A DNA stretch of 64,000 bases from Marsupella aquatica (Eukaryota; Plantae; Marchantiophyta), in the NCBI GenBank assembly GCA_973895155.1, contig OZ316897.1:17404058-17468057 (forward strand). The letters run 5' to 3'. Position numbers and translations under genes: made by a program. The notes beneath the pieces are model-generated. The model did no database searches. It saw nothing but the letters and a program-made list of their open reading frames with translations, and was not told the DNA's origin. Shown in pieces: positions 11,701-38,400 of this stretch; the stretch's first letter is position 1, and each line of letters starts with the position of its first letter.

Positions 11701-14700
11701 CTGCTACCAAAATGATCAGCTTGCTTCAACCTTCAACTTGAGCTATAATGTGTGATCCCTCCCGCACCGTATAGCTCACACTGTTGAAAAATGCAAACTC
11801 CACTAGTAGAAACCGGGGCAATTTAGACCATACCTTATAGGACTAAGCCCACTAAGTCCTTTTTCCATACTTGAAACGACTCGCACCCATTGCACCAGTT
11901 TTGTTGAAGACTACAAAAGACTATTAGTGTTTTATGGTTCACTAAAAGACTATGAGAAGTAACCTTGCTACTTTGTGAACGGTGAATAGTCTAGCACATC
12001 ATGGGTAATGTTCACTTATGTTGAGGAGGGGTAATTCTGTAAAGAGGGAGATAGCAAGGGGCATAACTCAATAAATGGCCTTATTTGTGACAAAAAAGGT
12101 TTTGGAGTGAGGTTCATGGAGGGTGGACTACGGAGGGATCGATTACTAACTCCATCAATAAAAGGCCAAGATGCACAAAGGTAGATTTGTACCGGTCTCA
12201 AGGGGGTGTGGGTTTAGGGTTAGGGGGTTGTCCAGGCAAAGAACACTCGATTGAAATAGTGACGCAATGGTTTAGGGTAAAGGAACATGTTTAGGGACCC
12301 TAACTTGTTTGCTGCCTTGGGAGGATCTTGAGAGCCTGAGCTTGCAAGCGGCATGCACTCTAAAAATGGCCCTTGGCATTGCAAAGATAGTCTGGCCACA
12401 GTCGAGTTGTGAAGACGTTTAGGGGGTTTATATGTCAAGGCTAGGGGGTGGCTGGGTTTTCACTAAAGGGGGTTTAGGGGGGTTTGATGTCAAGGGTCGG
12501 GGGTTGCATGTTAAGGGGATGGGGGTTTAGGAACCATTGGATCGTTGGCATCATGTCCATTGACATCATGTTCCCCATCATGTCCATTGACATCATATAT
12601 GTCGGGAAAGATAATTGACAAATTATTCATGAGGGTAGGCAATTTGGACAATGTTCAATTGTGTTCAGGAGGGGTAATTGCATAAATTAAGAGGGTGATG
12701 ACAAGGGGCATCACTCATTAAATGGCCTTATTTGTGACCAAAAGAGGTTTGGTTTAATGAAGTTCGATCACCACAGATATTTGCTAAGGCCAAAGTATTT
12801 GTTTAGCGACACTACACTAAGTTGTCACTCACAACACTTGAGTGAATGGAGGGGGTTTATGGAGGGTCAGGATAATCTTGCCGTTACCATGTCGGCAACA
12901 CCAGTGACTTTGGTAAGGGTATCCCAAGCTAGGGGCCTGTATCGCTTGCAGTACCGTTTGGACACCCGAGTCGCGCGACCGTTGGAAGGGAACAAGCCGG
13001 TTATGCAACTTTGCTTACACTTAGCAGGTTGTTGATGTGTTTAGGGATCCCGCCACATTCCCAACTTGCGGAGCAAGGTTTATTGTGTTCTCTTGGTGGG
13101 ATCGGGAGTTTAGGGATTGGAGCAAGGTTTTATCGTGTTCTCTCGATGGGATTGGGAGCTTAGGGATCGGAGCAAGGTTTTCCGTGTAATCTTGGTGGGA
13201 ACGTCTCTACAGTGAGGTTTAGTGTTCCCATTTTCTTGTGGTCGGCTCTGTGGAATCCGAGAAGAGGGATCGGGAGTTTAGGGATGCTGCAATGACCGGC
13301 TCTCGAAGGGTGAGGTGAGACAACCTATTCAACGCCCTTTTGCTGCACCCTTAAGCTGTTGAGCTGCCATTGAGCTGGTGAAGCTGCATGCGGGTTGCAT
13401 CTGTTCTACGGGCGCACTATCTGCCTGGTTTATGGATTGTGGACTTTGTGGGGAGCGACAATCGGTAACAACGTGAAGGCCATCAGAGGCTGGGCAAAGC
13501 AGTTTAGGGTGCTGTGGTCGAGGAGGAGCTCACCACAAATTGGGGAGAAGACGTGGGTGACGAGCTGGGGGCGGGGAGGAGCTGCAGTCAGGGAGGATAC
13601 AGACCGTCTACAGAACGACTGGCAGTCGGAGCGGCGCAGGAGCTTAGAGTGGGCCAACGCCAGCTGAATACAAGCCAGGAGTTGCATAAGGTGAGAGTCC
13701 AAGTTTTGTGTTGCTTTAGTGTTCGAGCAGCGTGCTGCCATTTCAGCCATAGTGCACCGCCTTTGAAGCTCCCATTGTCAGGGCTGGTAAGACATCACGG
13801 CTACATTGCTTTTCTTTGTTGTCCTCTGTCTTTTTGTGGGGACAACCTACTTGATTTGAGCTGCGCAAATCGTCATAAGTTAAGGCATGCGTCATGCCAT
13901 CTGGATAGTGTGCCACCGAACTGTGGGAGGATGAGCAACGCGTGGCTGTAAGCAGGTATTCTGTCAGCACAGGCGAGACTTCATTGTTAAAATCCTATTG
14001 CCTGCAATGTGTCTTGTAATGTGTTTTTCCTCATTCAATCAGGAGCTGAGAAGGGTATTGTTAGGCTTCAATTACTCTGTGTTTTTCTCCAGCTCCATGG
14101 TACAGTTTGTGCTTTGTCTGGCGCCCATGCTCCGTCGATCGTAGAGCTAGGTCAACCGAGCTTTGAAGAGGGAGGCTGTGGGAGCTCCTTACTGTGCTGC
14201 AGCTGCTCTTCAATCAACGGTGTAGAGATTGTAGCTACGATCAGTGTTTGCGGAGCTGCCAGCCGGGTGCTTCGATAGTAGAGAAGAGCAGCCACAGTGA
14301 TTCAGTCCTTCTCCTATGTGCAACCAAGGACCCCCTGTGCATCGTAAAGTGTGACCTCGGAGCTGAGCTGCGCACTGTCTCTATTACATGCCTTGTTGTT
14401 CTCTATTACATGCCTTGTTCTCCCGTCCACTATTTCCTGTGATTTTCTTTCTTCTAGAAGAGAATGGTGATTTCTTCTTCAATCAAACAAAACCCCACCC
14501 AACCACCACCCAAGAACGTGGGGTGCGCGCTTCTCAATCCTCCTCAAACTGGCCCCAAGTCTGCTGAAACCCCATATATTACCCACCGGCACCAAGGGTC
14601 CAGTCCCAACCCGTCTTCCGCTTGCCACCCTCCTCACTCTCTCGCGCATCTATCTCCCGATATTTCACGCACAGCCGAGCCCACCAAAAGCTCTCTCCCT

Positions 14701-16606
14701 ACAATCCCTCCTAAATCAACTTTCTCGTTTCCTGTTGCTGCTGATGTATGTTTGTTCTCCCCTATTTTTGTTTACTGATTGGTCTCTCCACACTTCCTGC
14801 TTGACATTACTGTTTTGCTCCTCCTGGATCCAAACATGCCTTGTGCCCCGTGCTCCAACCTGCATCCTTTTCTTTACTGAGGGGGGGACCACAGCCTCCA
14901 GCCATACCTTGTGGCAGGCCTGGTCAAGACGGTGGTCGGTAGCTCGTTTTTGCTTTTTTCTCTTTTGTTTCCCAAGCTTCTGGGCGAGGGCATTACCATT
15001 CTGGATTCTCCGCGAGGCGCCACTAGCTTTTTTTCTCGGTTGCCCGTGTGCCTGCCTTCTTAGTTTTGTTTTTTCCTCAAGTGACCGGGCCATCGCTGTA
15101 TGCAGATTTTTCTTGTTGTATTCATGTACAATATTTTATTGTTCTATCTAGGTTGTGGCAAGCCAACAAACTGTTGACAACCAACATGGAATAACAACTA
15201 TGCAGTGCAATGGCAGAGGACACTGTCCAATATAGGAATGACATGGTTATGTTTTCAATTCCCTGCTTGGATGAGGCGTGGTGTTGCTTGTAATCATGTA
15301 TTTCTTCACACTAGAAAAGCAGTCTGTCGGATGAGGTTGTCGGGATTGTTTGTGGGTCAGTCATCTTACGGACACCTAGCAACGTCAAATGAATGGTGGA
15401 AACGGGCCATGTTGTCATTTTGAAATTTGTCTTTCCTTTTGCCATGCTACCCAATCATTTTGTTAGTCCATGAGTCATAGATTCATAGATTCTATGTTTT
15501 GTGCTTTGTCTAGAATGCTATGGCGCCCATGCTACAATTTGTGGTTTTTGTCTAAGCACAAATCCTCTCTGTGCCTGGTCTCTGTGTACCGTCATTTGGA
15601 TTGATTGTGCAGACGTTTCCTCTTCTCCCAGTCCTTGTCATCCACCAGCCAAAGCACATTGGATTGTTTTCAAAGGAGGGCTGTGTAGTTCGGAGGGTTT
15701 GATCTATGCAGCGGATTTGAGCAGATTGGCGGTTGTTAGTTTCTTCTTGTAAAACCTGTCTGTCTTTTCTGCTTTTGGCCATGCTCCTTCACTTGTTGCT
15801 GCAAGCTCAATGTGCTTCAGCTATGGCAATATTCACTTACCCTGTCCCAACGGCACTGCCATGAGCTGTAGGACAGCCAACAGAAGCAGATTGTATCAAT
15901 TGCATGTAAGTCAGGGTATTTTATGTATTGCGGAACAACTGTCCAAGTATGCTGCAATGGTCCATCTTGCAGAGCTGAATGAGCCAATTTCATTTTCCCT
16001 GTGCACTTCTATTTCTCAGAGAATTCCCTGGTCATGCTCATTTCCCCCAGAGTTAGAAAACAAAGAAGAAGAGCTGACTAATTGTAATTCCAATCCATAT
16101 CCTGATCGGTCAAGGATTGTTCACTACATTGGCCTTGTCATTGGCCGAGGTCACCAAATTTTGCTTGGTTTCATTCCTGTGGAGCACTGCTGTGATGGAT
16201 TTGTCGTAGCATTCTGCAAACTCTCACGGTTTGCTTATGGCCATTATTTGCAATTTGCTGCTACTAATATGTCTTCTTCTAAGCAGCATACACCAGAAGT
16301 AAGCAATAGTGGAGGTTTAACTGCACATCAACACATCTAGTGAACTACCTCTCTGCTGCTCACTGGAGGGTGAGACTTTCACTCTTTCTGGATATTGTAG
16401 TTTGTAAGCAAGTTGATTAGGAGTGTTTCATGCTATGTTTACACTGTGACCCCTAGCTGGAACCAATGGAATGACACAGTGAGTGGGAACTGATAATTTA
16501 AGGTTGGTTGCTGTTGGTGAGGCAAGTACAGCTCCTGCTCACCTTGCTGATCGAAGGTGCTTATCAGAGGACGTGAACACACGACATCTCCACAAAAGCA
16601 ACACTT

Positions 16607-17056
16607 ATGGTGAGGACCCGCAACGCTGAACATGTGCGGCTTGCACGCAAGGCAGAGATGTTGCGCCTTGAGTATGTCAGACTTGGGATCCTTCCAGCCC
16701 AGTCTGCATGGTACTTTGAGTACCCAGTTGTTGCCAGGAACAACTACAGTCGGCCTGTACCTGCTTCTCCACCCTTCCCAACATCCTTGGTATTTCTGTC
16801 TCTTGTACATGACCCGCCACAAATTAGGGCCCAAGGGTGTGTGCACAGTTGCCAATATGACTGTCCTGCCTGTAGGGCTTCTGGCCTAGAGTTGGATGAC
16901 CGTTCTCTTGGATGTCGGTTTTTTCACAGAGCACAATGTATCATCTGGAACCACTCGCCATCCTGCAGTGTGCCTGGCAATGTCACTTGTCCTGCCCTCC
17001 CAGACCCCACCACCGGTCACTTTGGTGTCTACACATGTTTGGATCACACGCTCTAG
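16607..17056 (+). CDS. Cys/His-rich hypothetical protein, possible degenerate zinc finger
   Basis: 149-aa ORF MVRTRN...CVHSCQYDCPACRASG...GCRFFHRAQC...VYTCLDH; co-oriented with the cargo cassette. Confidence 0.4.
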   Translation: MVRTRNAEHVRLARKAEMLRLEYVRLGILPAQSAWYFEYPVVARNNYSRPVPASPPFPTSLVFLSLVHDPPQIRAQGCVHSCQYDCPACRASGLELDDRSLGCRFFHRAQCIIWNHSPSCSVPGNVTCPALPDPTTGHFGVYTCLDHTL

Positions 17057-17725
17057 AGGACCACTTGTCACACCACATGCACAAACCAGAGACCATTGAC
17101 CTATAACTTAACACTTTGACTTGAACAGAGAGGATATTTACTTAAGATTTTGAATTATGACCAATTTTGGGTCCAGGGTTTAGGGTCAACAGTACATAAC
17201 TTATCCTATTATGGCTGCACTAAGTACAATATCCTAATTTAAGAGGCTAGCAAGCTCACTTAAAAGTCTCCTTTCAAAGACTGGAATTAATGGGCCATGT
17301 GATAACCTGGAAAAAGTGATTTATGCCTAACTTATTTGTCTCATTCACTATCATAGCCTATTTAGGATGTATAAATTACAACCCTGATCACACTGCTTGA
17401 TACCAATCCTGTTCAAAAAATGCCTGTTTTACATGTCACGACTGTTATATGTGATTCAAATGCATTAAATCTTGTTGCAGATCTCCTTTGGTGAATCATA
17501 GCCACAAAATTGAGGTGTAGGTGGAGCTATTGTACGAGGGGATCAGTTTTTAGTGTGGGCTCAACAAACCAAAAAGTATGTCTACTCTGCACATGTGTGT
17601 GAACATTTCATTGCAGTAGCAATTGCCACTCTAGTCTATATGCTACACTGTACTTTTTGTACACTGCACTAAATTGTATTGTCTGTGCACTCTGCTAAAT
17701 TGTACTATCTGTCTCATGCGTAGGC

Positions 17726-18406
17726 ATGGCACGCCCTAAAATCCGAGCCAAGAAGCGGGGGACAGAGGTGAGCAACACAGGTGTAGTTGGGCCAGATGGT
17801 AGTAACTTCTCCGCAAGTCAGATTTTCCAGAAGGCAGCTCATTGTTGTGCCATTTGTGACGATGGTGGTGACTTAGCCATATGTGAGGGCCCTTGCATGA
17901 GGCATTTCCACCTCAACCCGGAGTCTGACCTTGCTGCAGAAAACAACTGTCCAGGGGTGGGCCTCCCGTCAGCACACCAAGGAGGCTGGATGTGCACTGA
18001 TTGTTTGGAGAAGCAGGCTAAGTGTGCACAGTGTGGGAAGTTGGGGTCTTATGAGGGCTCTGTTGATGCTCCACCACTTGTTAGGAAATGCCCTGACAGA
18101 TATTGTGTGAGGTTCTTTTGTTTTTCATGTTTGCCCGATCTTGCCACAGCTTGCCCACTTCATAAGTGCAAGGCATGTGGTCAGCACGATGAAGATTTCT
18201 GGGTGGACATAGTCCACTGTGTTAGGTGTCCCACCATGTGGCACTTTCATTGTTTGAAGGAGCGTCAAGCAGAAGGCTATGCTTGTGACAGACACATCTA
18301 TGATCACTCTGCACATGGTGTTGATCGATGGATCTTCTATTGTCATCGCCATGCCATAGATCCTACTTTGCACACTCCCATGAGAGATCACATTTCTTGG
18401 CTTTGA
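17726..18406 (+). CDS. Stand-alone EDM2/NSD-type composite PHD-finger protein (TE cargo)
   Basis: CAICDDGGDLAICEGPCMRHFH...C..C...CAQCGKLGS...CPLHKCKAC...HCVRCPTMWHFHCL...IFYCHRHAIDPTLHTPMRDHISW follows the recalled EDM2 PHD region (CAICDNGG..CCEG.C.RSFH...CPLHKC..C...CRRCP..YH..CL...IYC..HEID..L.TP.RDH). Basic N-terminus RPKIRAKKR. Acceptor AG at 17722-17723. Confidence 0.85.
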   Translation: MARPKIRAKKRGTEVSNTGVVGPDGSNFSASQIFQKAAHCCAICDDGGDLAICEGPCMRHFHLNPESDLAAENNCPGVGLPSAHQGGWMCTDCLEKQAKCAQCGKLGSYEGSVDAPPLVRKCPDRYCVRFFCFSCLPDLATACPLHKCKACGQHDEDFWVDIVHCVRCPTMWHFHCLKERQAEGYACDRHIYDHSAHGVDRWIFYCHRHAIDPTLHTPMRDHISWL

Positions 18407-19006
18407 ACCTGAATAATGTACATGCATAGTGCACCTGATGTGGATACCTTGGAGATTGCAGACATTCCAATTTTGAGAAGAAGGACCTCTGTAGGAGAGG
18501 ATGCTTAGGCAACAAGTACCCTAAGTTCATTACTTGTTCCTGGGTACATGCCTTCAAAATCTCCCCTTAAGCCTTCTAGGAACTTTTTTAACTCTGCAAT
18601 CATTTTGATCACGACTTACATGACACTGCTTAAATTAAATCAGGACTTCTCATTATGAGCATATAAGTTACAAGGCTATTTAATTTGCGAGAATTCCCTT
18701 AAAGTGTACCAACATTTTGTATTCTCATTGAATGTCTGCCCCCATACGAAACATCTGTATGTGGCATCACAAAACAATTGCACTTGTCACCTTCAATATT
18801 GTGAAGGCACATATTCAAACTATGAAGTGCATGCTTGCAGGTGTCTAGTACGTTTGTCCCAATATTTCTCCCGTTTGGAATCGGAGCAGAGACTCACCAG
18901 ACGACTGGACTGGACCAAGTTATAAACGCAGCATTTTAAGGGCCCTCCGATTATCAGGTGAACGCATTATCTTCCGGTCTGCAGTGATTAGGTGGCCCGT
19001 GTGTAC

Positions 19007-19855
19007 ATGGCCTCTAGGAAACGTACAAATGTTGACCACCCGCCTTTGTTGGCTGGAATCAAAGCCATTTTGATTCCTGGCCACTATGGGTTCACCCAAG
19101 TGAGTTGGCCAATCGTACAAAAACGATTCTCAGAGTTCCATGGGACTGAAGTCAAGGACATCACTCCACAGACTACACATGTTGTTGCGGGGACATGGCT
19201 GGATGTGATGAACAAGTGGTCATGGTCCTTCATTGATTCTGCGATTACCAACCAAGGTCTAAAAGTAGTTGAAGTCTCTTGGCTGACCGATTCTGTTAAA
19301 CATAGGTGTGTACAGAGTACTGAGCAATATGAGTTGTGGGAGAGTGAGGAGGCCACTGCAGAGGCTTTGGCTGAAAAGGAAGCCTATGAAGCAGCGGCAG
19401 AGAAACCCAACTTTGCTTCTGTCCAATATGGACCTGTTGTCAACATAGGACACCATCCTATGCGTGCAGATGCTATATTGAATGAGCATGGCAAGGAGAG
19501 AAATACCATTATGAAGGGGTTCAGTGTGGTATTTGCAGAAGAAGGAATTGGGGAGACTAAGTGCAGACTGTACAAGTCTATAGTTGTTGAGCTAGGTGGG
19601 ACAGTGGAGGAGAGTCTAACAGAAACCTCCACTCATGTTGTAGGTCTGTCATACATGAAAATATGCAGAAAATTCTTTAAGACAACAGTGCGTGATTTTG
19701 TCATGAACAACAATCTTTGGGTGCTTTCCCCTGATTGGCTTCTGGAATCAGCAGCTAGAGGGAAGCGACAGAATGCTTGGGACTTTGATATTTTTGAGGC
19801 CTGGCCCTCCAAGATTCAGCGGAGATGTATGCTTAGCAAAGGTGGGAGAGAGTGA
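19007..19855 (+). CDS. Tandem BRCT-domain protein (TE cargo)
   Basis: Two BRCT repeats: ...HGTEVKDITPQTTHVVA...VVEVSWLTDSVK...EQYEL and ...LGGTVEESLTETSTHVVG...VLSPDWLLESAARGKRQN. First ATG 19007 (ORF track from 18992). Confidence 0.85.
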   Translation: MASRKRTNVDHPPLLAGIKAILIPGHYGFTQVSWPIVQKRFSEFHGTEVKDITPQTTHVVAGTWLDVMNKWSWSFIDSAITNQGLKVVEVSWLTDSVKHRCVQSTEQYELWESEEATAEALAEKEAYEAAAEKPNFASVQYGPVVNIGHHPMRADAILNEHGKERNTIMKGFSVVFAEEGIGETKCRLYKSIVVELGGTVEESLTETSTHVVGLSYMKICRKFFKTTVRDFVMNNNLWVLSPDWLLESAARGKRQNAWDFDIFEAWPSKIQRRCMLSKGGRE

Positions 19856-20031
19856 GGAGTAGGAGTCCCTCATATTTTTGTATAAATCACAATTTTGTAA
19901 TAAATGTGATCCTTGAACTAACTCATCTTGTCATGGTTGGTCGCAGTTGAAGTGATTGTTGTTTCCTGCTGCGTGGGGTGTGACTGTGAATCTACTTGCT
20001 GGGCTCTGTTTGGCTGAAGACTTTGGTGGGT

Positions 20032-20565
20032 ATGCTGCCTCTTCCAGACCGTCAGGCCCTGTGTAGGGTCCTCCTACGGGTTGCATCGTGCATGGCTACT
20101 GCTTGGGCTTACTTGTGTGGATTGGTAACCAGACAGAGTGTAGCTCCATCCGAGATAATGCCTGCAGACCTTGGATGTGTTGTGAATGCTGTGGTGAATG
20201 AGGATGCACAGTCGGAAGAGGACATTTACTTTTCAGCAGATGAGTTAGACAAGCACGATGCTGTAGGTGGTTCCTTGTTGCCTGATTTGGCAGATGATAT
20301 AGTTCTTACACATGTCTGGCCGAGGGTTCTTGTGGTGTCTGGCGCACAAGATATCTGCAAATATAGACTAATTAGTACCCAGTGGAGGGACTTGGTAGCA
20401 ACATGTGCACCATGGAGGGCACTGCTGCCACTGCTTGTAGGCACGGATCGAAGACCACCATGGCATGAGCAGGGTTTAGACCTTGATGACTTAATGTACA
20501 TGCCTGAGTACCTCAGGGCTGAGTGGCATCGACAACAAGATTGGTATCCGTATTTGATGTGGTAG
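20032..20565 (+). CDS. F-box motif protein (TE cargo)
   Basis: SLLPDLADDIVLTHVWPRV...ICKYRLISTQWRDLV fits the F-box consensus LP.LPDD+...+..R+...+R.VC+.WR.L+. First ATG 20032. Confidence 0.7.
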   Translation: MLPLPDRQALCRVLLRVASCMATAWAYLCGLVTRQSVAPSEIMPADLGCVVNAVVNEDAQSEEDIYFSADELDKHDAVGGSLLPDLADDIVLTHVWPRVLVVSGAQDICKYRLISTQWRDLVATCAPWRALLPLLVGTDRRPPWHEQGLDLDDLMYMPEYLRAEWHRQQDWYPYLMW

Positions 20566-20891
20566 TAAGATGAGGACATCTCACACCGGTCTCGCACCTG
20601 GCACCTGTGTCTATGACTATACATGATTGGACTCTGATATGGTCATGGATGTACGTGCAGAGGCAGTACATGTGAGGACAGCGGAGGAGTTGACATCCTC
20701 AAACATTTAGGAATTTTGTCTCATTCACTTGAGAATAGGTACATGACTCAGGCACCTATATTTTTTGTTTTTTTGTTTTTTTGGAACGTTACGTATTTTG
20801 GCAAGTACAGTCGGGGGTGAAATCCTTAACAGGAAGTGTATTTTTCACTTGCATAATAAAATGACAGGGTGCTGAGTGCGTGTGTATAGTG

Positions 20892-23800
20892 ATGGCTCCA
20901 AGGTTGCCTCTTCACAACCCATTTAGGATTAGGCATCATGATTCTAAATTGTGGATGCGTGAACAAGCCCGGGCCGCCCAAGGTAGGAGTAGGAGGATGA
21001 GATGCCCATGCACACAGTGCCAAGGATTCAAGTCATTGAGTTTGAACACTGTGCACCTTCACCTGCTGCGGCATGAAAGGCACCCTCGGTGGAGGGTTTG
21101 GAATGTACCAGCAGAAGAAGACTCCTCTGATGAAGAGTGGAGAGCTGACTTTGTGGATTCTAATACAGCTAGGCGTAGAGACTACGTAGAGCAGGACATA
21201 GACTGTGCAGAGGATGGTCCTGGGGTCCAACATGAGAACGTGGATGACCAAGATGGAGATGCAGAGGCAGTCACTGAGGACGGTGGGATGGATGTCCCAA
21301 GAATGGTTCAAGAGATTTTTGAAGACCTTGATGCTTTTTACGACACAGTGGAATCAGAAGAGGACAATGAACCGCAGCCACACATTGGCGACGGCCAAGC
21401 TGAACCTGACTTTGACATTGGGGAAGGTGCAGCAGAGAGGGAGTGGGTGTTTGGGGGCCCAAAACACATCAAAGAAGCTTGCATTCCTATCTACGAGGGG
21501 TCGAACTGCTCCAAGCTGGGTTTTGTCGTGTTGTTGTTGAACATCTGTGGCAATCACAATGTTCCCAATATATTTGTGACAGAGTTGTTGACCTTCCTGC
21601 GCCGAAATGTGTTACCAGATGGTAATTCAATTCCAAAAAATATGTACGAGGCTAGGAAATTGATGTCTAACCTTGGGCTGAACTATGTGTCTATTGACGC
21701 ATGCCCTGATGGGTGTGTTCTCTTTCGCAAAGAGCATGCAGATAAATTGACATGCCCTCATTGTGGTAAGCACAGGTACAAGAATGTAGGGAAATGTACA
21801 CACCCTGCCAAGGTTCTTCGTCATTTTCCTCTCATTCCTAGACTACAACGTCTGTTTAGATGCCCTGCCATTTCCAAGCTGATGACATGGACTCCTGATA
21901 ACAAGAGCAGTGATGGCCTGCAGCGTCACATTGGAGATTCCAACCATTGGAAATTTGTTGATGAGAGGTGGCCACAGTTTGCTGCAGAGAAGCGGAACTT
22001 TCGATTTGGTCTATCACTGGATGGAGTAAACCCATTTGGAGACAAAAACAACCGTTATTCATGTTGGCCGGTTACGCTGCTAAATTACAACCTTCCCCCA
22101 TGGATGACTACAAAGAGGTTTTTTGTCATGATGGTGCTGTTAATCCCTGGACCAGCTTCTGTGACCGAGCAATTCATAGATATCATGTTGGCTCCAGCAG
22201 TGGAAGAGTGGAAGACTTTGTGGATAGAAGGGGTGTTAACCCATGATGTTCTGAAGGGGCTTCTTCGACCCAGCCCCTTTAGACTGCATGCAATTTGTTT
22301 GCTGGATATAGCAGATTACCCAGGCTATGGCATCATATCTGGACGAGTGACAAAGGGCTATGTGGGGTGCACACCATGTGGGAAAAATGTGACAAGTGAG
22401 TGGTCGCATGCCCTGCACAGTATGAAATTTCAGGGGCATAGAAGGTATCTGCCTGTTGATCATCCTTACAGGCACACACGGTCTCAAATTGCACACTTCA
22501 ACAACAAAACAGAGCTTCGTGGCCCACCACAGAGGGTCACCAGAGAGCAAGTCCTGAGGTGGGCAGCCAGGAAGGCTGATTGGGACAAGAGAAGTGCCAC
22601 TGATCGAGAACCTGAGGATCCAGTGGTGAAACACGGTGTGAAAAGACAGACCTTGATGGACTTGGAGTTGGAGTACTGGAGGGTAATGTACTTAGCCTCC
22701 AGCCCCTGTATGATTGCAATTTTAGATTGGAGCAATGGTGGATTGATGTTGGTTACAATCCTCCTATGTGGTTAATTAGTGTTTCTGTTGTTGAATTCTT
22801 TGCTTTGTGGAGTGCAGGAATTCGAGCCCAGCAAACACAATGTGGACGTCATGCACATTGAGAAAAATATTTGTGAGAGCTTGCTGAAGTTCTTGTCGGG
22901 TGAGAAAGATACAGGAGCAGTTCGAGCTGATATGCAACAGAAGGGGATTCGCCCTCACCTTTGGTTGAAGCCCCATGCAAGCAATCCCAATGTACTTCTC
23001 AAGTTCCAAGCTCCCTATGTGTGCACACAGGATGAATGGAAGACATTCTTGTATAGATTGAGCTGTCTGAAAGTGCCCTCTGGCTATGCTGGTGCCTTCA
23101 AGAAGCATATTACAAAGAATAAACTTGGCAGTATGAAAACACATGACTACCATGTGTTGATGCAGCACATTCTGCCCCTATGCCTCAGAGGTCTCATGCA
23201 GAAACCAGTCCATAATGTCATTCTTCGACTGTGCAATGTATTTCGCCGTATATGTGTGAAAGTGTGGGATCCCCAAGGATTGGAGCAGTTGAAGCAGGAT
23301 GCTGCTTATGTCCTCTGTGACTTGGAGATATACTTCCCCCCTGCTTTCTTTGATGTTATGACTCATCTCCTAATCCATGTGGTAGAAGAGCTAGGGCAGT
23401 ATGGGCCAGTCAGTACCAGATGGATGTACCCTATGGAGCGATACATGAAGTTGTTGAAAGGTCATGTGAGAACATACTACAGGCCAGAGGCTTCCATGGC
23501 ATTGGGGTACATTAAGGATGAGACGTTGGGATTCCTAACAGAGTACATGGCTGGGTCTGGTGAAGCTATGACAAGAGTTTGGAAATCTGGTGAAGATGAT
23601 GGAGTGAGTGGCGAGGTTGTTGAAGGTGTGGGACGTGCTGTTCAGCTGCCTGTTGCGATTCGAGACAAGGCTCATTCATATGTGCTGGCAAACACAGAGC
23701 CTATGCAACCATGGTGGAGGTGAGTGATTGAATTGACTTGCCTTTGTTGTGATGCTTCTTGTCTGTTCCAAGGGTGATCTTAGGTTGTCATGTGTTGTTT

Positions 23801-24592
23801 AGACCTAACTATGCCTGTACCTCATATTGCAGGGAATATGATATGCAAAAAGCTGCACACTCTGGGCAGCAGGATCCCTTCCCACAGTTCGAGCAGTGGA
23901 TTCGGGTGACAATTCGAGAGCATAGTAGACATCACCCAGATATGGAGAAGGATTTGTATCTTCTATCTGTGCCACCACGATTGTCTATTCTGACCTACAA
24001 ACGGATGAGAGCTTATGGAAATCATTATCGAGTGAGGGATGAGCAGGGTGACCATTGTGTATCATATGATTGTGGTTTGATTTCTGTGTTTGAGCAGAGA
24101 ACCTCTGAAGAACAGAGGGGGTGGATGAAGATGGGTTACGTGGGGGAGTTGACCGACATTTGGGTGTTGAATTATGGTAACACAAGTGTCCCAGTGATAT
24201 TGATGAAGGGATCATGGGTGAAATCAGAGTGGCAGAGACCAAGGGCCACCATGAAGCGTGATCATGATGGGTTCTTGTTGGCCAATTTTAGGTCCAGAGT
24301 ACCAGAATGGTCTGAGCCTTTTGTTTTCCCTAGCCAAGTTGAACAGGCTTTCTTTGTAGATGTGGAGGAGTCACATGGCTGGAGGGTGGTATGCCATAGC
24401 CAAGCACGGAACAGGCGGATGGATGGAAGTAAAGTAGAGTTCAGTTTGGATGACCATGCTGCATTCGAGCATCCTAGTCATGAGACTGTACTTCCAACTC
24501 GGGCAGGGACTGACTACATCCCCTTAACATTGAGAGAGACATATGATGAACCTGGGCAAATGGAATATGATGAGGTTGATGATTTGCAATAG
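20892..24592 (+). CDS. CACTA TnpD transposase, apparently intact; exons 20892-22682, 22818-23719, 23833-24592 (~1150 aa)
   Basis: CPCxxC N-domain, IDACPDGC, LSLDGVNPF, NYNLPPW, ADYPGYG, DVMHIEKN, KTHDYH, FFDVMTHLLIH, WMYPMERY, EPFVFPSQVEQAFFV. Both GT-AG introns join in frame. Confidence 0.95.
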
Positions 24593-24769
24593 GCAACAGC
24601 TGGCGATTGGCAAGTATGAGGTTGAGGATGACTACCTGCACAGAGTCACAGAACGGGAATTGCTGCCTGGAATGATGTTTAGGATAGTTGGATATGCATG
24701 AAATTGATTGATACTTTGAATTTAGTGTGCTGATTCTCCCTGTTTGGTTGTGGGTGCTGTGCAGAAGCT

Positions 24770-27700
24770 ATGGGGGAAGAGGGTGATGACATGGAGACAG
24801 ACATGGGGCTTGGAGAGTGGGGTGAAGAGGAAAGATTGGATATGGATGGAGACCCAGATGCAGGGGGCTCACAGAAAAATGCACCTGTGCAGGATGCACA
24901 GGGCCCTCATCAAGTCCCAGGTAGGTGGGCAGCTAGAGAGAAATCACATAATCCATACCCTAGAAGGAGCCAGAGTTATTGGCAAGGGACGCCTGATAAT
25001 TATGATGATGACTATGATGGAGCAGAAGATGGATGGGATGAATATGAACACCCAGAGCGTGGTAGAGACGGGTACAGAGGGCAATGGACAGGTGAGGAGG
25101 ATGATTGGACAAGTAAGTGCCTTGTGCTAGTGATTTTGTGATGGTAGTAGAGATTTAGCTCAATATGGACTTATCTGATGTGTAGCTAGGGCAAAGAGTT
25201 TATCTTACAGGTCCATGAGTGTGGCATGTACCTGTTGGTATGCAGACTCTGATTGGGACAATCACGAAAACAACAAAGGCCATCCACGTTCAGATAGGCG
25301 GCAATCATTCACAGGCGGGAGAAACGGCCCTAATTCATCAAGACAAAGCAATAGGACAGGTGGTCCAGAACCATCTATGCGCCAAGGGAGAGGTAACTTG
25401 GTCATTGCAGAATTGCTCTGAAGTCCAGTGTATATTTGGCAGCAGGATTTATGATTCATACTTACCTAATGTAAGTGACTGTAAATGGATCCTGTAAATG
25501 TGCAGGGACTCCAGGGAGGTTTGGACAATGCAATCCAGGCCGTGGGGGGAGATCAGGCCGTGGAGGGACCCCAGGCCGTGGGGGGACACCAGGCCGTGGA
25601 GGGACACCTAGTAGCGCTTCAGGGAGTACCAAGGCAGGAGACAGTAACAAATTTGGTAAAGTAGAAGTGAATTCCGAAGGTTGGATAACTCCCACATGTG
25701 ATGGTAAGAACCGTTGGCATTCTGACCTAAGAGGAGAAGTATTGCGTTGGTTAGATTTGAGCATTACAGAGTTTAGGAGTCAGAACAAAGCTGATTGGGC
25801 TGCTATCTGCAAGGACATTCTTGAACGGTGGGACTATGTTGGTAATGATGGTAAGGGCCCAGTTGAAGATTGCATATCAGATTATGCAATGAGGATTTTG
25901 AAACAAGAGAGGCATAGGTTGAAAAGGATGTGGATAGACAATGGTTCTAACAGGAGAATGCCACCACCCCCATCATTGGAACTGGATCAATGGACACGGT
26001 TAATCAAAGGGTTCATGTCGGAGGCTGGACAGAGCAAGAGTGAACTGATGTCAAATGCTCGAGGCAAAGTGAAACACCTTTCACAGGCTGGGAGAGGAAG
26101 TTATGCTCCAGTGAAAGAACAATTGGTAAGGCAGTGACATGCCTAATAGTAAGCCTCAAACTTATCATCTTGCTACCATTATTACATTTTCATTGACAAT
26201 CAACACTTGGTTTCATTCATATGTATGTTGATGTGGACTGCAGAAGAAATTGACAGGTGAAGAACCATCAGCACAAGAAGTGAGAGAGGAGTTCATGAAA
26301 CAAAGGAGTGAGGTGACAAGTGTGACTTCCAAACAGGTGATTATGTTGTAATTCTATATGTTCTGTGACTATTTGGCCTTGAGCATCAGAAAGAATTGTA
26401 GTAGGAAGTAAGCAACCAGTTCTTGGGGACAATTATCTGAGATATGTAAACTGTGTTATGACAGGGAACTGTTACAACTCTCACAAAGATGTCTGAACGG
26501 TTGAAGTCATTAGAGTGTGGACTCCCTCGAGTGGAAAGTAAATTGGCTGATCGTTTGGATATTGTGGAGGCATCTGTAGCGAACCTTCTTGCATCAGTGG
26601 AATCTAATTTCAAGCTTGTGATTGAAAAATTGGGTGGTTCCCAACCAAACAATGAGGGCAACATTGTACAAAGTGTGCCCTTGTTAACAAAAAAGGGAAT
26701 TGGCAAATCTGACACAGGTATGCAATGAGGATTTTGAAACAAGAGAGGCCCATTGTTCATTGTGTCCTATGTTCAAATGTTAGAAGTAAGTTTTCATGAA
26801 TTGAGTGAATGGTTTGAATGCAGGAAGAGTGGAGGCAGAGAACCTGGACCCTGTAATCGGTAAGCAGAATGGCAAAAAGGTTGCTGAGACAGGTAACCTG
26901 CTATGATCCAGTACATTACATTTGAAAAGTGCATGGAGTTTTGTGAAGCTTAAGCCGGTTGGAGGTAATCTTTTCTGTAAGAATTGGTTGGATAAACTGG
27001 GAATTGAAGTGACATCATGATTGATGTATCAGGTGATTCAAAGAGCAATGAAAAAGATGTGCCCAGTGCCTCAGTGACCATAGCCAAGGAGGTATCAGGT
27101 AAGCTGATGCTTTAAATTCCTCTCCTACCATTGTTGAGAAACAATTCAGTGGTTAATAGATTGAACCTGAATCTTGTGGTCTGTTTATTGATCAGCAGAA
27201 GCAGACATGGAGGATATGGCAATGGCAAAGAAGGGGAAGAAGGCTGTTCATAATGGTAAGGAGATAGTGACAACTTTGTGGATGGTGACATGTACATGGC
27301 GCACATGTGATGAGTGATTCACTTATGTTGGACAATGCATTGAATTGTAGTTGATGCAGAGTTGACAGACTCTCAACCAAGTGGGAGCAGGGTGAAGCGA
27401 CGTCGAAACTTGGGAGCAACATTGGATGCAAGTAAGATTGTAGATGCTTCAATTGAAGCAAGTACAATGTTAGCAGATACTGAGATGATGTCGCAGGGAA
27501 ATCCTGCTACACAATCGGAAGTGTCAAATATGGATGCAGATTCTTTGAAGAAGAGTGTAGCCAATTCTCGATCACCAGCACAAAACACTCGTGCCAAAGT
27601 CATGACTCGCAACCAAGGTATGAATAATGTCATGTATAAGCCACCCAGGAAAGCCAAGAAAAACAGCCAGGGTAAGGTGGAGGTGATAGCCACAGCAGAG

Positions 27701-27955
27701 CCAGTCCATAATCTTCTATCATGGGAGAATGACTCGCAGGTATGTGTGGGTACAGGCATTTTGCGACCGGATCATGCTAAATTCCATGGCAAAGTGGTCC
27801 CGGATGACCATGTAGTAGTGTTGTTGACTACAGTGATTGTATCTGATTGTAATTTGCCATTTCCGAATAGAGACGATGATCCACCTCAAGAAATAATTGC
27901 AGATGCAGTAGGATCTCTTGTGCTCTGGCCATCAGAGTGTGTTAGTCTGCAGTGA
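24770..27955 (+). CDS. TnpA-like multi-exon CACTA accessory gene
   Basis: Series of short exons with GT/AG borders (24770-25112, 25246-25392, ~25506-26125 and others). Core ILERWDY...ILKQERHRLKRMW..PPPP...QWTRLI. C-terminal En/Spm-type domain (VGTG...FHGKVVPDDHVVV...LPFP...DAVGSLVLWP). Exact exon chain not fully resolved. Confidence 0.7.
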
Positions 27956-29081
27956 CTGAATACAAGTGTAGATAGAATCATGTGAATTGTGTTACATTTT
28001 GACATTGCCTTGGAAAAATCCAAGAAATATCTGTACCAATTTTTCCATTTGGTAAAGAGGATGAAGGAGCCGTTGTGTGTGACATTGATATTTCTGAATT
28101 CTGTATGTATGAAACAAGTGATTGATGTCAAACTATGGCTCTATGGTGATTGTCTATGATACTTGAATCTGTTTTGTATCAATTCAGTATTAGTGTGTAT
28201 GGTATAGACGAATGCTTTGTGACCTTCTTTGTAGTCTATGATGTTTGAATCTGTGAATTCATATTAGTGTACATGGTATAGAAGATGGTTTCTGAAAATT
28301 TGTGTGAGGTTCTAATGTTAACATGGTGAATGGTGACCTTATAGAGTGAGTTCATTCCAAGTACACAATAAAACATGAATGAAATGTGTTATTTGTGCAC
28401 AAGAGTGAGTTCATTCCAAGTAGTATAGTGGGGTCTTCATCACTCATTTCCAGTTGACATGAAAGACTTGTACATACCCCACAAAGTGTCTACTTTAGTC
28501 GTTTTATAAACCCCCACAAAGTGTCTACTTTAGTCATTTTATAAACCCACAAAGTATATTTAAAGACTACCCTCCATAACCTTTTGAGTTGTTCCCAACG
28601 ACTCACCATCGCAGCCCATAAAAGACTGAAAAAGACTCACCAAAGCTACCCACACAAAGACTAAAATAGACTGAAAATCCAGTCTATTAAACGACTTATA
28701 AACCAGTTCTATAAAGGACTCAGTTGATTATAGTAACAAAACATACGACTCGCAGTCCTATAAAGGACTAGAGTCCTTCCCAGTCGTTTCCAAGTCCTAT
28801 ACGGTATTGAATAGTCGTTTAATGGGGTCTAAATACCCCCCGGTTTCTACTAGTGCTCTAGTTTCTCCCCCAAAAAGCCGTCAAACACGAATAAAACTTG
28901 AACGACGCAAAATTCAATTCCTCCGCACCACGGATATCGATCAGCAAGTTCTAACCACCGTCAAAAAGCGCTCTCACTAACCTATCCGCTCAGCCACACA
29001 CATTCAAGTTTTATGCAACAAAACTCTGAATGTACCATTGAGTACAATGAATGCTGGAAAACCTCGTCACCTCCCAGACAT

Positions 29082-29093
29082 GCTCTGATACCA
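29082..29093 (-). promoter_or_regulatory. Primer binding site (tRNA-iMet) of LTR copy A
   Basis: Minus strand TGGTATCAGAGC, 2 nt from the LTR end. Confidence 0.9.
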
Positions 29094-29095
29094 AT

Positions 29096-29432
29096 TGTTG
29101 AGCAGAGACAACATTTGCAACTGCAAGCCCATGAACCATCCAATGCACAAGAGTCGACACAAAGAGATACATGGTTCACCTCCACATGAGACTACGTCCA
29201 CAGGAACACACAAGAGCTTTACTGCACTCTAGGCGGACCAGCCATACCAAGCATCCACAACACAAGCTCTCCCTATCTCTCAACTAGCTCCGTAACAATG
29301 AGCCTAAGTTCCATTAGGGGTCTGGCATCAGCCTCAGCAATATGCACAATAGCACTCTCGCTAACATTAGCTAAGTCCTAACTCGAGTTAGACTAACTTT
29401 GGTTAGCTCATGAGCCACAAGACTAGAGAACA
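29096..29432 (-). mobile_element. LTR (copy A), with 8-bp deletion near its outer end
   Basis: TGTTGAGC...AACA termini; homologous to 38401-38744 and 55228-55571. Confidence 0.85.
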
Positions 29433-30869
29433 GGCTATAGGGGCGCGGGGTTAAGGCAAGGCCGGCAGCCGAGCACGAGGAGGGCATAAAGGGGCGACGC
29501 GGGCGCGCCTGCTGCCCATGGCAGGCGAGCGCAAGCAGGTGGCAGCGAGGCGTCGGCAGCCTAAGGCAGGGCACGGGGGATGCGAGGGGCAAGTCAGTGG
29601 GCCGGGAGGGGAGAAACGTTGGCAGCGCATGAGCGCGCATGAAGCGACGGCCGGTGCTACGCAGCTTGCCACTGCGCTAGAAAAAATGGAGTGTGGGGGG
29701 GACCGTATGCGAGGGGGAGTATCGCGTGTCAGGGAGGGGGGAGGTCGGGTGTGTGTATACAAACTCAAATACACACTCAAGGCCCCCCTTTAGACCCCCT
29801 TTAAGTCAAAAACTTAACCATAAACCAAACAATGCTAATTTCTTACCTCAACAACCTCGGTTTACACAAAGAAAAAGATTAGTGCCGACGGGTTAAAGTT
29901 GCCAAACTTCACCGGCAAGGTTTGCAAGCTCCGCCGTGGAAAAACTTTCCGTCCTGTCACACTCAATCTACGTCAAGTGCCAATCCCGGGCTCAAAACAA
30001 CCGCCTTGCCGCGATCAAATCGTTGAGCCATAGCACTTTGCGTTTCTTCCACCGAGTCGGACGTAACAAAGAGAAACCTGGTTCAGATGGAAACAAGCTC
30101 CATCACTCTATTCATTAAAACTGGAATTTCTAGAGTCCAAAAGTTGATGCTCAAAAGTATTATTTTGCTACCCAAAATTTCACAAAATTTGCCCCAAAAG
30201 TATATATTTGGTAGGCCAAATGTACACTTTTTGTGGTCTAAAATTACACTTCTTGTACCTAAATTATTAAATAACTAAATAGTAATTTATAATTAATTAA
30301 GATTCATATAATATAAATTTATATTATTATACTATATAGTATCATTATTATTATATAGTCTAAAAAAGCATATCAATGAATAGAATATAACAATCTATAT
30401 ACAATATATTAAATTAAAATTATTGGGAATACATGAATGACTATATCAGTTTAGTCAATCGTCTCTACCCTAAGTAACACTAGTAAATATGGTAGTTTGA
30501 CTGTCAAGGGTAGCAAGTGATGAATGGTCATTTGTCCTTATTAATTAAGGGTAGAGATTGCAACCACCCTAATCTCCTATCTATGTAAGAACTTATATTT
30601 ATCATACTTAGATGGTCGAGATAGTCTAGACCCAAATGGAGGGTTTATCTTTGACTAAATATTACACTCATGACTCTCTTAGTTGGTAGAAATCATTTGA
30701 GCAAGCAAGTCCAGACCTTGAAAAATCAAATTTCATACCTTGGTTGCACACCACCTACGACACTATATTCCAGAACTTATAGGATAGGTACAACAATTAT
30801 CATAATAACTTGGCTCCACAAAAGACCTAAAGCAAAACCCCTTTGAATCTTTTGGACTCCAGATGATCG

Positions 30870-33800
30870 ATAGCCTCCAAGTGCTAATAGTTTTCAGGAC
30901 TCTAAAATCAGAGTAAGGACAAGAGGCTCGAGATGATCTAAAGCCTCCATGCACTTCAATTTTTTGCACTCTAAAACCAAAGTCAAGACAAGAAGCTCGA
31001 GATGAGCTAGAGCCTCCAAGCGCTTTCAATTTTCAGCACTCTAAAACCAAAGTTAGGACAAGAGGCTTGAGATGATCAAGAGCCTTCAGGCGCTTCAATT
31101 TCCACAGTCTAAAACCAAAGTCACGACAAGCTAAGAGTCTCAATGCAAGACTATCTAGAGCCTCCAAGCACTTGAAGTTTTTGGACTCTAAAACATAAGT
31201 CAAGACAAGAGACTCGAGATGATCTAGAGCCTTAGACTGTTTCAATTTTTTGCACTTTAAAACCAAAGTCAAGACAAGAGGCTCTATACAATCTAGAGCC
31301 TCCAATCGCTTCAATTTTATGCACTCTCACACTAAAGTCAAGACAAGAGGCTCAAGATGATCTAGAGCCTCGGTCCAAGTGCTTTAATTTTGTGAAGTCT
31401 AAAACCAAAGGCAGGACAAGAGGCTCGAGATGATCTAGAGCCTCCAAACGCTTTAATTTCTACACTCTAAAACCAAAGTCAAGATAAAAGGCTTGAGATG
31501 ATCTAGAGCCTTCGAGCGCTTCAATTTTTTGCACTCTAAAACCAAACTTAGGACAAGAGGTTTCAAATGATCTAGAGCCTCCAAGCGCTTCAATTTTCTG
31601 CACTCTAAAACCAAAGTCAGGCCAAGAGGCTCGAGATGATCTAGAGCCTCCCAGAAGTTTTCTACACTGTAAAACCAAACTAAGGACAAGAGGCTCGAGA
31701 TGATCTAGAGAGCCTCCAAGCGCTTCAATTTTCCTTGGAATGGTAGCCATTTTATAAATTTCAGTTCCCCCGCGAAAAGCCCCACGGGGAGGGCGCACAA
31801 ACAAATCATATTCACGGGAGACAGCCAAGATAGAACAGAGGACCAAACCTCAAAAAATCACCTCAATCCCACATCAGGCAAGGAATTAACCTCCCCGGCA
31901 ATACCTAACAGCAAAAGAGGACAACCACACAACCTAATAACCAACCATAGGGCATCCCTGCCCCCAGAACCATACATTCATCGGTCTCAACGTTCCAACC
32001 TCACAGCAAAATCAGAGTCATCTAGCGGAAGTGAAACTGGTCCCCCCACCGCCGAGCCAGCTCCTGCGAAGTCCATCAATACATGATTTGGCCCGTAGCA
32101 GGCGAGTGCACTTCCTACCCGGGGTGGGCAACGCCGACCAGCAGCGAATAAGTTCTCCACTGCCTCCGACGGGACAAGTCCCAGGTCAAACACACGTCTC
32201 CCCCCCGTCTGAAACATGTGAGTGTTTCTCCCAATCTAGAGCCTCCAGAGAATCTGGTGTAAGACAAAAAATTGCGCCACTCCCACAGGCTCCCTCCCAC
32301 AGGCTGCATCTAAAAGCGCTTCAATTTTGTGCACTCTAAAACCAAAGTCAGCACAAGAGGCTTGAGATGATCTAGAGACTCTGAGTGCTTGAAATTTTTG
32401 GACTCTAAAACCAAAGTCAAGACAAGAGGCTCAAGATGATCTAGATCCTTCGAGGACTTTAATTTTTTGCACTCTAAAACTAAATTCAGGACAAGAGTCT
32501 CGAGATGATCTAGAGACTCTGAGCATTTCAATTTTGTGCACTTTCAAACCAAAGGCAGGACAAGAGGCTCAAGATGATCTAGAGCCTCAGAGTAGTTTAA
32601 TTTTCTGCACTCTAAAACCAAAGTCGAGACAAGAGGCTTGAGATGATCTAGAGCCTATGAGGGCTTCAATTTTCTGCACTCGAAAACCAAAGTCAAGACA
32701 AGAGGCTTAAGATGATCTTGAGTCTCCAAGCAGTTTTCAACATTGTAAAACAAAACTAAGGACAAAAGGCTCAAGATGATCTAGAGCCTCCGAGCGCTTC
32801 AACTTTTTGCACTCTAAAACCAAAGTCAGGACAAGAGGCTCGAGATGATCTAGAGCCTCCAAGAAGTTTTCTACACTAGAAAACCAAACTAAGGACAAGA
32901 GGCTTGAGATGATCTGAGCCTCCAAGAAGTTTTCTACACTGTAAACCAAAGTCAGGACAAGAGGCTCAAGATGATCTAGAGCCTCCGAGCGCTTCAATTT
33001 TCTGCACCCTAAACCCAAAGTCAGGACAAGAGGCTCGAGATGATCTAGAGCCTCCAAGAAGTTTTCTACACTATAAAACCAAACTAAGGACAAGAGGCTC
33101 GAGATGATCTAGAGCCTTCGAGCAATTCAATTTTCTGCACCCTAAAACCAAAGTTAGGACAAGAGGCTCGAGATGATCTAGAGCCTCCAAAAAGTTTTCT
33201 ACACTGTAAAACAAAGCTAAGGACAAGAGGCTTGAGATGATCTGAGCCTCCAAGAAGTTTTCTACACTGTAAACCAAAGTCAAGACAAGAGGCTCAAGAT
33301 GATCTAGAGCCTCCGAGCGCTTCAATTTTCTGCACCCTAAACCCAAAGTCAGGACAAGAGGCTCGAGATGATCTAGAGCCTCCAAGAAGTTTTCTACACT
33401 ATAAAACCAAACTAAGGACAAGAGGCTCGAGATGATCTAGAGCCTTCGAGCGATTCAATTTTCTGCACCCTAAAACCAAAGTTAGGACAAGAGGCTCGAG
33501 ATGATCTAGAGCCTCCAAAAAGTTTTCTACACTGTAAAACAAAGCTAAGGACAAGAGGCTTGAGATGATCTAGAACCTCCAAGAAGTTTTCTGCATTGTA
33601 AAACCAAACTAAGGACAAGAAGCTTGAGATGATCTAGAGAGCCTCCAAGCGCTTCAATTTTGTGCACTCTAAAACCAAAGTCAGGACAAGAGGCTCGAGA
33701 TGATCTAGAGCCTCCAAGCGCTTCAATTTCTGCACCCTAAAATCAAAGTTAGGACAAGAGGCTCAAGATGATCTAGAGCCTCCAAGAAGTTTTCTACGCT

Positions 33801-38386: not shown

Positions 38387-38398
38387 GCTCTGATACCA
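38387..38398 (-). promoter_or_regulatory. Primer binding site (tRNA-iMet) of LTR copy B
   Basis: Minus strand TGGTATCAGAGC adjacent to the LTR. Confidence 0.9.
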
Positions 38399-38400
38399 TT

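Follow-up and report, generated by a model that had tools for sequence, protein, structure and literature searches.

Why a transposon of the liverwort Marsupella aquatica should carry reading frames resembling chromatin, repair and ubiquitin modules is the question raised by this locus. It lies in a 64,000-nucleotide stretch of contig OZ316897.1 (the window, to which all coordinates refer), where the original prediction placed a complete CACTA transposon at 16607-27955. The element is complete, but it begins 4.8 kb earlier; position 16607 is the start of a fourth ORF that the prediction had not listed. The actual element, of the CACTA (EnSpm) type, spans 17,055 bp (11801-28855, plus strand). 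Its 18-bp terminal inverted repeats (11801-11818 on the plus strand, beginning with CACTA, and 28838-28855 on the minus strand) match perfectly and are flanked by the trinucleotide CTC on both sides (11798-11800 and 28856-28858). Filtering left three CACTA/CACTG terminal pairs in the 64 kb, of which this one alone has a target duplication. The element is inserted in an LTR-element-like repeat, and an LTR-type primer site lies about 230 bp away. A paralogue of this repeat at 37970-38398 is unbroken and has a single trinucleotide at the insertion point, and a contig from public run X2 connects position 11791 with 28856 through six letters, the length of an empty site. The only candidates for subterminal repeat arrays are short AAGACT-type 7-mers, three to four copies per end.

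The left portion of the element (11819-16606, plus strand) has no assigned gene and presumably contains promoter and leader; within it, the 12.7-15.6 kb segment probably varies between copies, since its coverage is thin in runs X1 and X2. At the other end lie the two transposase genes, both on the plus strand and both open once GT-AG introns are spliced out, in agreement with their predicted intactness. TnpD (20892-24592; 1150 aa; predicted exons 20892-22682, 22818-23719 and 23833-24592) contains Transpos_assoc, Transposase_21, DUF4218 and DUF4216 domains, the first and last of which score below cut-off when the exons are scanned split. The TnpA-like gene (24770-27955; 747 aa) has nine predicted exons, eight introns of 100-140 nt and a weak Transposase_24 match (E=0.002). 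The interval 11801-28855 is an intact, multi-copy CACTA transposon with long-retained accessory genes.

Three uninterrupted ORFs lie head-to-tail on the plus strand ahead of TnpD, each with an ATG and a stop codon; the prediction that they are intronless and have their own starts holds at the level of coding DNA, though a spliced exon further upstream is possible. In 2000 second-order Markov simulations run on the region, three ORFs as large never arose. The fourth frame, ORF0 (16607-17056, plus strand; 149 aa, GC 53%), has a Cys/His-rich C-terminus and is assigned to no family; the chance of a frame of its size in the region is about 5%, and an ESM Atlas search with it returned nothing usable. 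An NCBIfam scan of six cargo-type or SET proteins gave no matches. The possibility that the cargo ORFs serve as alternative terminal exons of one leader was rejected, acceptor scores before six ATGs being not above background (fractions 0.06-0.88). Comparison with public runs revealed 108 indels and 86 joints besides those listed; all five listed indels in 16607-20891 lie in spacers (p about 0.01-0.03). Only three of 40 listed variants fall in cargo ORFs, two silent and one replacement.

The first of the three ORFs (17726-18406, plus strand) specifies a 226-aa protein, here named mini-EDM2, made of a basic leader and an EDM2/NSD-type composite PHD only. Three NSD-type PHD models align with it in sequence order, each slightly below the Pfam cut-off; a profile search matches NSD2 (E=9e-11), and its host relatives carry the name EDM2. 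The predicted composite EDM2-type PHD identity is secure. Because the ORF stops at the PHD, omitting the N-terminal RFD and the methyltransferase-like ELP domain, and because the RFD is confined to host matches, the protein is best described as EDM2-derived and not as an EDM2. Its predicted model has a pLDDT of 74 and its fold matches are PHD folds, all with Z under 6. The acidic residues that precede the first PHD cysteine in host EDM2 are absent; the histone mark read may therefore differ from that of EDM2.

Identity to host EDM2-like proteins is at best 28-35% (the genome of its own host lay outside the comparison), and members of the PHD-only group are 36-82% identical. In trees drawn from hand-picked subsets (52 and 32 of the 142 rows covering more than 150 profile positions), PHD-only proteins formed one clade, with support of 100/95 in the first, where ten such rows sit on a long branch apart from the 42 others, and 100/100 in the second. 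As to the donor lineage, PHD-only proteins and short liverwort EDM2-like paralogs share one side of a branch with support of only 39/55. The PHD-only relatives agree in start, length and C-terminal end, and also in an internal shortening and a His-to-Cys ligand swap. Five of them retain 22/22, 22/22, 20/22, 20/22 and 18/22 of the cysteines, as against 163/204 to 60/192 of the other residues (Fisher p 0.01 to 3e-7). When the ORF was mutated neutrally to 54% or 40% identity, the frame stayed open in 1/300 runs each, a test biased by the fact that databases contain only called ORFs. Judged by eye, only 6 of the 19 PHD-only-type relatives are whole; the frame is lost within the domain in about six, and the remainder are partial or decayed. 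A metagenome scan yielded 9 of 221 stretches, all host-like at 26-46% and none with similarity to TnpD, BRCT or F-box; none of 42 pattern matches in viral contigs proved to be a relative.

The second ORF (19007-19855, plus strand; 282 aa) matches Pfam BRCT over two stretches (E=6e-14), and its predicted tandem BRCT nature is likewise secure. The two domains are 24% identical, with a linker of about 50 aa between them. In tandem BRCTs of the BRCA1 type, which bind phosphopeptides, the first repeat holds a phosphate pocket of Ser-Gly and Lys, and the linker is short. In a weak alignment with BRCA1 (E=0.05), Tyr/Phe-Gly occupies the Ser-Gly place and a Lys lies near the second pocket site; the pair does not clearly preserve the phosphoserine pocket, as far as this alignment indicates. 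PDB searches matched ligase IV, BRCA1, Rtt107 and TdT at E values of 0.006-0.4, and a resemblance to the BRCT of plant DNA polymerase lambda is possible. A same-size relative is 61% identical, and neutral mutation to 61% left the frame open in 0/300 runs.

The third ORF (20032-20565, plus strand; 177 aa) has an acidic patch, a weak F-box-like motif around aa 87-130, followed by only about 45 aa, and a short conserved tail. The motif recurs in three relatives (Pfam E=0.001-0.035, against 0.1 for the protein in the window), yet all scores, 13-19 bits, fall below the 20.5 cut-off. F-box chains in the PDB match at E=0.6-0.7; the fourth-ranked Atlas match is an F-box cluster (0.91; 82/256 features in common), and the predicted model is unusable (pLDDT 41). 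The predicted F-box identity is plausible but not secure. Relatives of the same size are 51-55% identical, and neutral mutation left the frame open in 0-1 of 300 runs.

Public runs contain the cargo in other copies and other organisms; the ORFs are not limited to a single copy. In run X1, cargo bins lie at 0.95-2.45 times the depth of TnpA bins, summed contig depth not being equivalent to copy number. ORF0 and the PHD gene reach twice the TnpA depth and are for that reason likely to be present on other elements as well. In run X2, from another organism, BRCT bins amount to only 0.36-0.46 of TnpA depth. Diverged matches in run X7, which bears another organism label, heap on PHD (1483/1018), F-box (271/248) and TnpD (up to 2936), with flanking bins at 9 and 3.7 and no high-depth match in BRCT bins. 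The F-box ORF is frameshifted by a 43-nt skip at 20195-20239, seen in the main contig of X5 (depth 42.7) and in part of X2 (8173), and a joint at 19452-19544 in X1 falls within the BRCT linker. Compared with the PHD gene, BRCT and F-box appear the more labile, and they look like optional cargo, not fixed partners.

These observations bear on the proposal that the ORFs constitute a retained toolkit and not a passive capture. The data support the second part: the cargo ORFs are old, retained modules and, in the data seen, not recent captures, because the PHD-only clade is well supported (100/95), stands at 35% identity at most to host EDM2-like proteins and conserves its cysteines. Among the host proteins compared, the near-identity to host fragments that would have spoken for capture is absent for the PHD ORF. 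The notion of a set kept together fares less well in view of the lability of BRCT and F-box, and disruptions both in the F-box frame and among the PHD-only relatives speak against a fixed toolkit.

EDM2, which binds H3K9me2 chromatin, is known to suppress proximal polyadenylation and to lower H3K9me2/CHG at COPIA4; at Mu1 it promotes silencing marks (PMC7529245, PMC3632883). We propose, with a confidence that stops just short of an even chance, that mini-EDM2 acts as a histone-tail reader shielding element copies from H3K9-methylation-linked silencing. Directed to the nucleus by its basic leader, it would bind heterochromatic nucleosomes in the manner of EDM2 and, devoid of RFD and methyltransferase-like parts, compete with host readers; alternatively, it would promote read-through along the element's long transcript. 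With lesser weight, the two-BRCT protein would bind repair factors where excision or insertion leaves breaks, and an SCF ligase would be the partner of the F-box-like protein. A broader version, in which a land-plant CACTA clade has long carried the mini-EDM2 reader and BRCT/F-box adaptors as a working kit blocking the H3K9me/CHG loop on the copies of its own family, strikes us as rather doubtful.

Unequal module depths across X1, X2, X5 and X7, with the doubled ORF0/PHD depth in X1 and the F-box frameshift in X5, could also mean that the ORFs have no shared job, having been acquired at different times and exchanged between transposon families. Selection would then keep the PHD gene for a benefit unrelated to anti-silencing, with BRCT and F-box drifting in and out. 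Accessory genes of Plavaka elements and fungal TET genes do switch transposon families (10.1101/2025.02.11.637652, PMC12730594). Set against this are the open, same-size relatives of all three ORFs, at 51-82% identity or below, and the joint occurrence of PHD and F-box matches at high depth in X7; on balance we hold the explanation to be unlikely, though deserving serious attention.

Chromodomains of some retrotransposon integrases tether integration to chromatin, and the PHD-only protein might similarly steer insertion by holding the transposition complex at heterochromatin or at other repeats. The location of this copy within another repeat, close to the primer site, and the binding of EDM2 to H3K9me2 chromatin (PMC7529245) would fit; a single insertion, however, and a PHD encoded separately from TnpA and TnpD make this improbable. 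That the PHD-only proteins are a small gene family of non-seed plant hosts, taken up whole by the element, is highly improbable: none of 13 PHD-only relatives looked up occurs in annotated NCBI or UniRef proteomes, frameshifted relatives are frequent and PHD match depth in X7 resembles that of transposase matches, even if diverged relatives are known from short contigs, with transposases not in view, and the EDM2-like genes of Marchantia include short ones, among them one encoding 280 aa. Passive capture in the Pack-CACTA style, recent enough for the host gene fragments not to have decayed, is the least probable account, for although such fragments are common in CACTA elements (PMC8978399, PMC13317346), many PHD-only relatives look broken and the own host genome lay outside the donor comparison, the PHD ORF reaches no more than 35% identity with the host EDM2-like proteins seen, falls in a separate clade, keeps its derived features and cysteines across 36-82% divergence and accompanies open transposase genes.

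Mini-EDM2 is a small candidate for histone-level counter-defence, demonstrated anti-silencing proteins of plant transposons being rare (PMC12973397), and a natural minimal construct for the EDM2 composite PHD acting alone. It shares with EDM2 and EDM2-like proteins the whole composite PHD unit, the C-terminal Cys/His extension and the terminal TP-RDH motif (PMC7529245), but is transposon-borne, 226 aa long as against 700-1600, and has a second finger about 25-30 aa shorter, with the His-to-Cys swap. VANC/KIU of VANDAL MULEs provide a parallel as separate ORFs of host chromatin-factor origin that a plant DNA transposon has kept; they belong to another superfamily, with MAIN-like and Ulp1 donors, and VANC binds DNA motifs with demonstrated anti-silencing, whereas mini-EDM2 is a putative histone reader (PMC13317346, PMC13547354).

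The cargo itself is less surprising than had been supposed, since 17-19 kb EnSpm/CACTA elements with three accessory genes, one bearing a SET domain, have been published. Red-algal giant Plavaka elements, of this superfamily, carry a PAG1-3 cassette beside the transposase, chromatin-related and mobile between families (10.1101/2025.02.11.637652), and En/Spm elements of Chondrus measure 16-20 kb with 4-5 ORFs (PMC6431247). Plavaka cargo consists of enzymes (adenine methylase-SET, ParB-2OG oxygenase); the M. aquatica element has binding modules only, with canonical plant TnpD plus TnpA, and no Pfam match to PAG2 methylase-SET or PAG3 ParB-2OG was obtained in the ORFs scanned, which for the small frames of the 5' region comprised four of them and ORF0. 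Fungal TET/JBP-bearing EnSpm and other DNA transposons, and SET-bearing HarbingerS and MuDR, likewise carry host-type epigenetic cargo with a proposed role in silencing escape, but these are enzymes of fungi and oomycetes, not a reader-only protein of a land plant (PMC12730594). The same backbone, with the four TnpD domains and Transposase_24 and with extra host-derived sequence, is found in Pack-CACTA elements and in angiosperm CACTA elements that carry Peptidase_C48 or captured fragments; they differ from the M. aquatica element, with its whole, old, conserved ORFs and open TnpD/TnpA (PMC8978399, PMC13317346). No report of PHD/BRCT/F-box cargo in a plant TnpA/TnpD element was found in the literature searched, whose scope excluded Repbase, subscription journals and supplementary tables, where such elements may be described. 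With the M. aquatica element, the giant cargo-bearing CACTA elements seen in red algae and fungi also include canonical TnpA/TnpD elements of plants.

A recurring strategy had been suggested on the grounds that a neighbouring CACTA element carries a SET domain. The SET ORF is confirmed (Pfam SET, E=2.8e-5), but the left end of that element lies outside the window and its TnpD has stops. Were the broader version correct, this SET cargo would join mini-EDM2 in a second plant anti-silencing system, working through histone marks rather than the DNA motifs of VANC. The two elements also differ in composition, as noticed post hoc. The M. aquatica element is depleted in CG but not in CWG (observed/expected 0.91-1.0 in cargo, TnpD and TnpA), in contrast to the depleted neighbouring CACTA and LTR repeat (0.55-0.79); between the two TnpD genes the difference has p=0.007. 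The contrast, at most an indirect hint of anti-silencing, sets one element against a few and is confounded by age. The intervals 46-54 kb and 62-64 kb are likewise free of CWG depletion, whereas mild depletion (0.83) is seen in the 5' region of the element itself.

A search of the window for CACTA/CACTG terminal pairs yielded three candidates, and a target duplication was found at only one of them, the plus-strand element at 11801-28855. Its inverted repeat is a perfect 18 bp and CTC flanks each end. The flanks are the halves of one repeat, matching 37970-38148 (88%) and 38147-38398 (80%); this paralog of the target (37970-38398) carries no insertion and has one trinucleotide at the corresponding site. 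In a contig of public sequencing run X2, six letters separate 11791 from 28856. The complete CACTA transposon of the original prediction is thus real and well bounded, with its terminal repeat, CTC duplication and uninterrupted target paralog. The right flank leads into a primer-binding-site-like motif (approximately 29084-29093) and an LTR-like repeat recurring at 38.4 and 55.2 kb; therefore, the repeat hosting the insertion is likely to be an LTR element. Members of this LTR-element-like family occupy 8002-11800, 28856-29853, 37970-38732 and 55230-55559. The element's 5' interior (12674-15608) is likely to vary among copies, since its depth is several-fold below that of the rest of the element in runs X1, X2 and X5, and X2 and X5 show a 1.7-kb skip at 13806-15498.

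Both transposase genes, predicted to be intact, have open frames after splicing as predicted from sequence. TnpD (1150 aa; predicted introns 22683-22817 and 23720-23832) contains all four usual domains; alternative splice models are also open, the one chosen having the best splice sites by eye. The TnpA-like gene (747 aa) has eight predicted GT-AG introns. Four ORFs lie upstream of TnpD on the same strand: ORF0 (149 aa; 16607-17056) and ORFs of 226 aa (17726-18406), 282 aa (19007-19855) and 177 aa (20032-20565). No trio of the size of the last three arose in 2000 simulations; a 149-aa ORF arose by chance in 4.7%. Two of the three modules originally proposed were recovered. The 226-aa ORF matches three NSD-type PHD models in order, its profile matches NSD2 (E=9e-11) and its predicted structure contains PHD-like units (pLDDT 74); the 282-aa ORF has two BRCT domains. 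The F-box signal of the 177-aa ORF falls below threshold and is stronger in its relatives. ORF0 has a Cys/His-rich tail, and domain and family comparison of its protein assigns no family. Its bins have the greatest depth within the element in X1 and X2, and it may be a fourth cargo gene.

Word-based searches, covering proteins of near-query length, identified relatives of the PHD ORF (5 of 94 candidates; 36-82% identity, 217-245 aa), the BRCT ORF (1 of 772; 61%, 294 aa) and the F-box-like ORF (3 of 100; 51-55%), all from unannotated assemblies. The PHD profile, run against 1.84 billion representatives, gave 549 matches. Further short PHD-only proteins head the best 150. After them come long proteins of the hosts, which go by the name EDM2 in angiosperms and are listed as hypothetical in Marchantia, Riccia, Calypogeia and Diphasiastrum; identity of the PHD ORF to the EDM2-like host proteins among these is 28-35%. 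A tree places ten PHD-only proteins in a single clade (100/95), set apart by a long branch. Common to them are a basic leader, a second finger that is shortened and has a His-to-Cys swap, the lack of an acidic run ahead of the first finger and a C-terminal H-I-S-W; Cys is retained far above other residues. The divergence from hosts, separate clade and Cys conservation bear out the view that the cargo is more than passive capture, and the PHD-only proteins appear to constitute a family without a previous name, mini-EDM2. Under neutral change to the relatives' distances the frame seldom stays open, a comparison biased by the databases' preference for open frames. Judged by eye, 6 of the 19 PHD-only-type relatives are whole, and about 6 of 19 are out of frame mid-domain. 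A mobile gene present in many copies, some of them dead, would be expected to look like this, but it is also a sign that many copies are non-functional. Some PHD-only features resemble those of short liverwort EDM2-like paralogs, a candidate donor lineage with which the PHD-only proteins group at 39/55 in a tree. These liverwort proteins (P0061, P0021, P0016, P0029, P0033, P0019) form a clade of 280-770 aa, ending shortly past the PHD unit.

Part of 17000-24600 was found in 10 public runs, which come from 8 studies and bear six or more organism labels; four of these runs have at least half of it, and one may be the window's own source. When run contigs were compared with the window at 82% likeness, cover extended across both cargo and transposase in 4 of 12 runs. 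Relative to TnpA bins, cargo bins reach 0.95-2.45 in X1; in X2, ORF0 and PHD are at about 1, F-box at 0.6-0.8 and BRCT at 0.4, summed contig depth not being equivalent to copy number. X7, which bears a different organism label, shows diverged matches of high depth at PHD, F-box and TnpD bins only, and at one loose end the PHD frame continues with a similar peptide. All five cassette indels among those listed lie in spacers, but a skip of 43 nt puts the F-box ORF out of frame in the main contig of X5 and in part of X2, and the joints listed include one within the BRCT linker in X1. No listed contig spans two cargo genes. From these depths, indels, skip and joint, the cassette is not limited to this copy; within it, the PHD gene has the look of a stable core and the BRCT and F-box genes look variable. 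More distant relatives are known by sequence rather than by position with respect to CACTA ends.

Cargo-bearing CACTAs are a known kind of system; what is new here is a variant with a mini-EDM2 family. No plant TnpA/TnpD element with a PHD-only gene derived from EDM2, or with BRCT cargo, was found in the literature searched, Repbase and supplementary tables aside, nor was PHD-only or BRCT cargo found in the available portions of PMC12973397, PMC13547354, PMC13317346 and PMC6431247. According to the EDM2 literature (PMC7529245; PMC3632883; PMC8762163), EDM2 binds chromatin marked by H3K9me2 and, within heterochromatic introns, suppresses proximal polyadenylation; it also affects silencing marks, which go down at COPIA4 and up at Mu1. 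An element-encoded derivative consisting of the reader alone would be likely to sit on EDM2-type H3K9me2 nucleosomes without the effector parts; there it could shield the element from H3K9me/CHG silencing or, alternatively, aid read-through of the long element transcript. We tentatively regard shielding or read-through, taken together, as the likeliest role. The BRCT and F-box-like proteins might act as their domain names suggest.

CG is depleted in the cargo, TnpD and TnpA (CG/GC 0.31-0.35) but CWG is not (0.91-1.0 of expectation), whereas the neighbouring CACTA and LTR repeat are CWG-depleted (0.55-0.79). Between 11801-28855 and its surroundings (1-11800 and 28856-30100), CG depletion is common to both and CWG depletion confined to the neighbours; the two TnpD genes differ in CWG content (p=0.007). 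This contrast offers a post-hoc hint that fits the proposed role in shielding or read-through; it is confounded by age, and some other stretches of the window also lack depletion.

The neighbouring CACTA (3096-3827 and 3978-8001) is distinct: its TnpD is 32-36% identical to the element's and has in-frame stops. Its right end is at 8001, its left end lies outside the window, and CWG depletion is strong. As originally noted, it carries a SET domain, in an ORF directly upstream of TnpD (Pfam SET, E=2.8e-5). Elsewhere, tandem arrays have units of approximately 69 bp (30857-34400), 108 bp (35194-36750) and 75/57 bp (43878-45783), the last with long open frames of repeated Ser/Cys/Pro-rich units. 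A two-exon host carboxylesterase gene of the hormone-sensitive-lipase family, with normal CG content, occupies the minus strand at 58547-60785.
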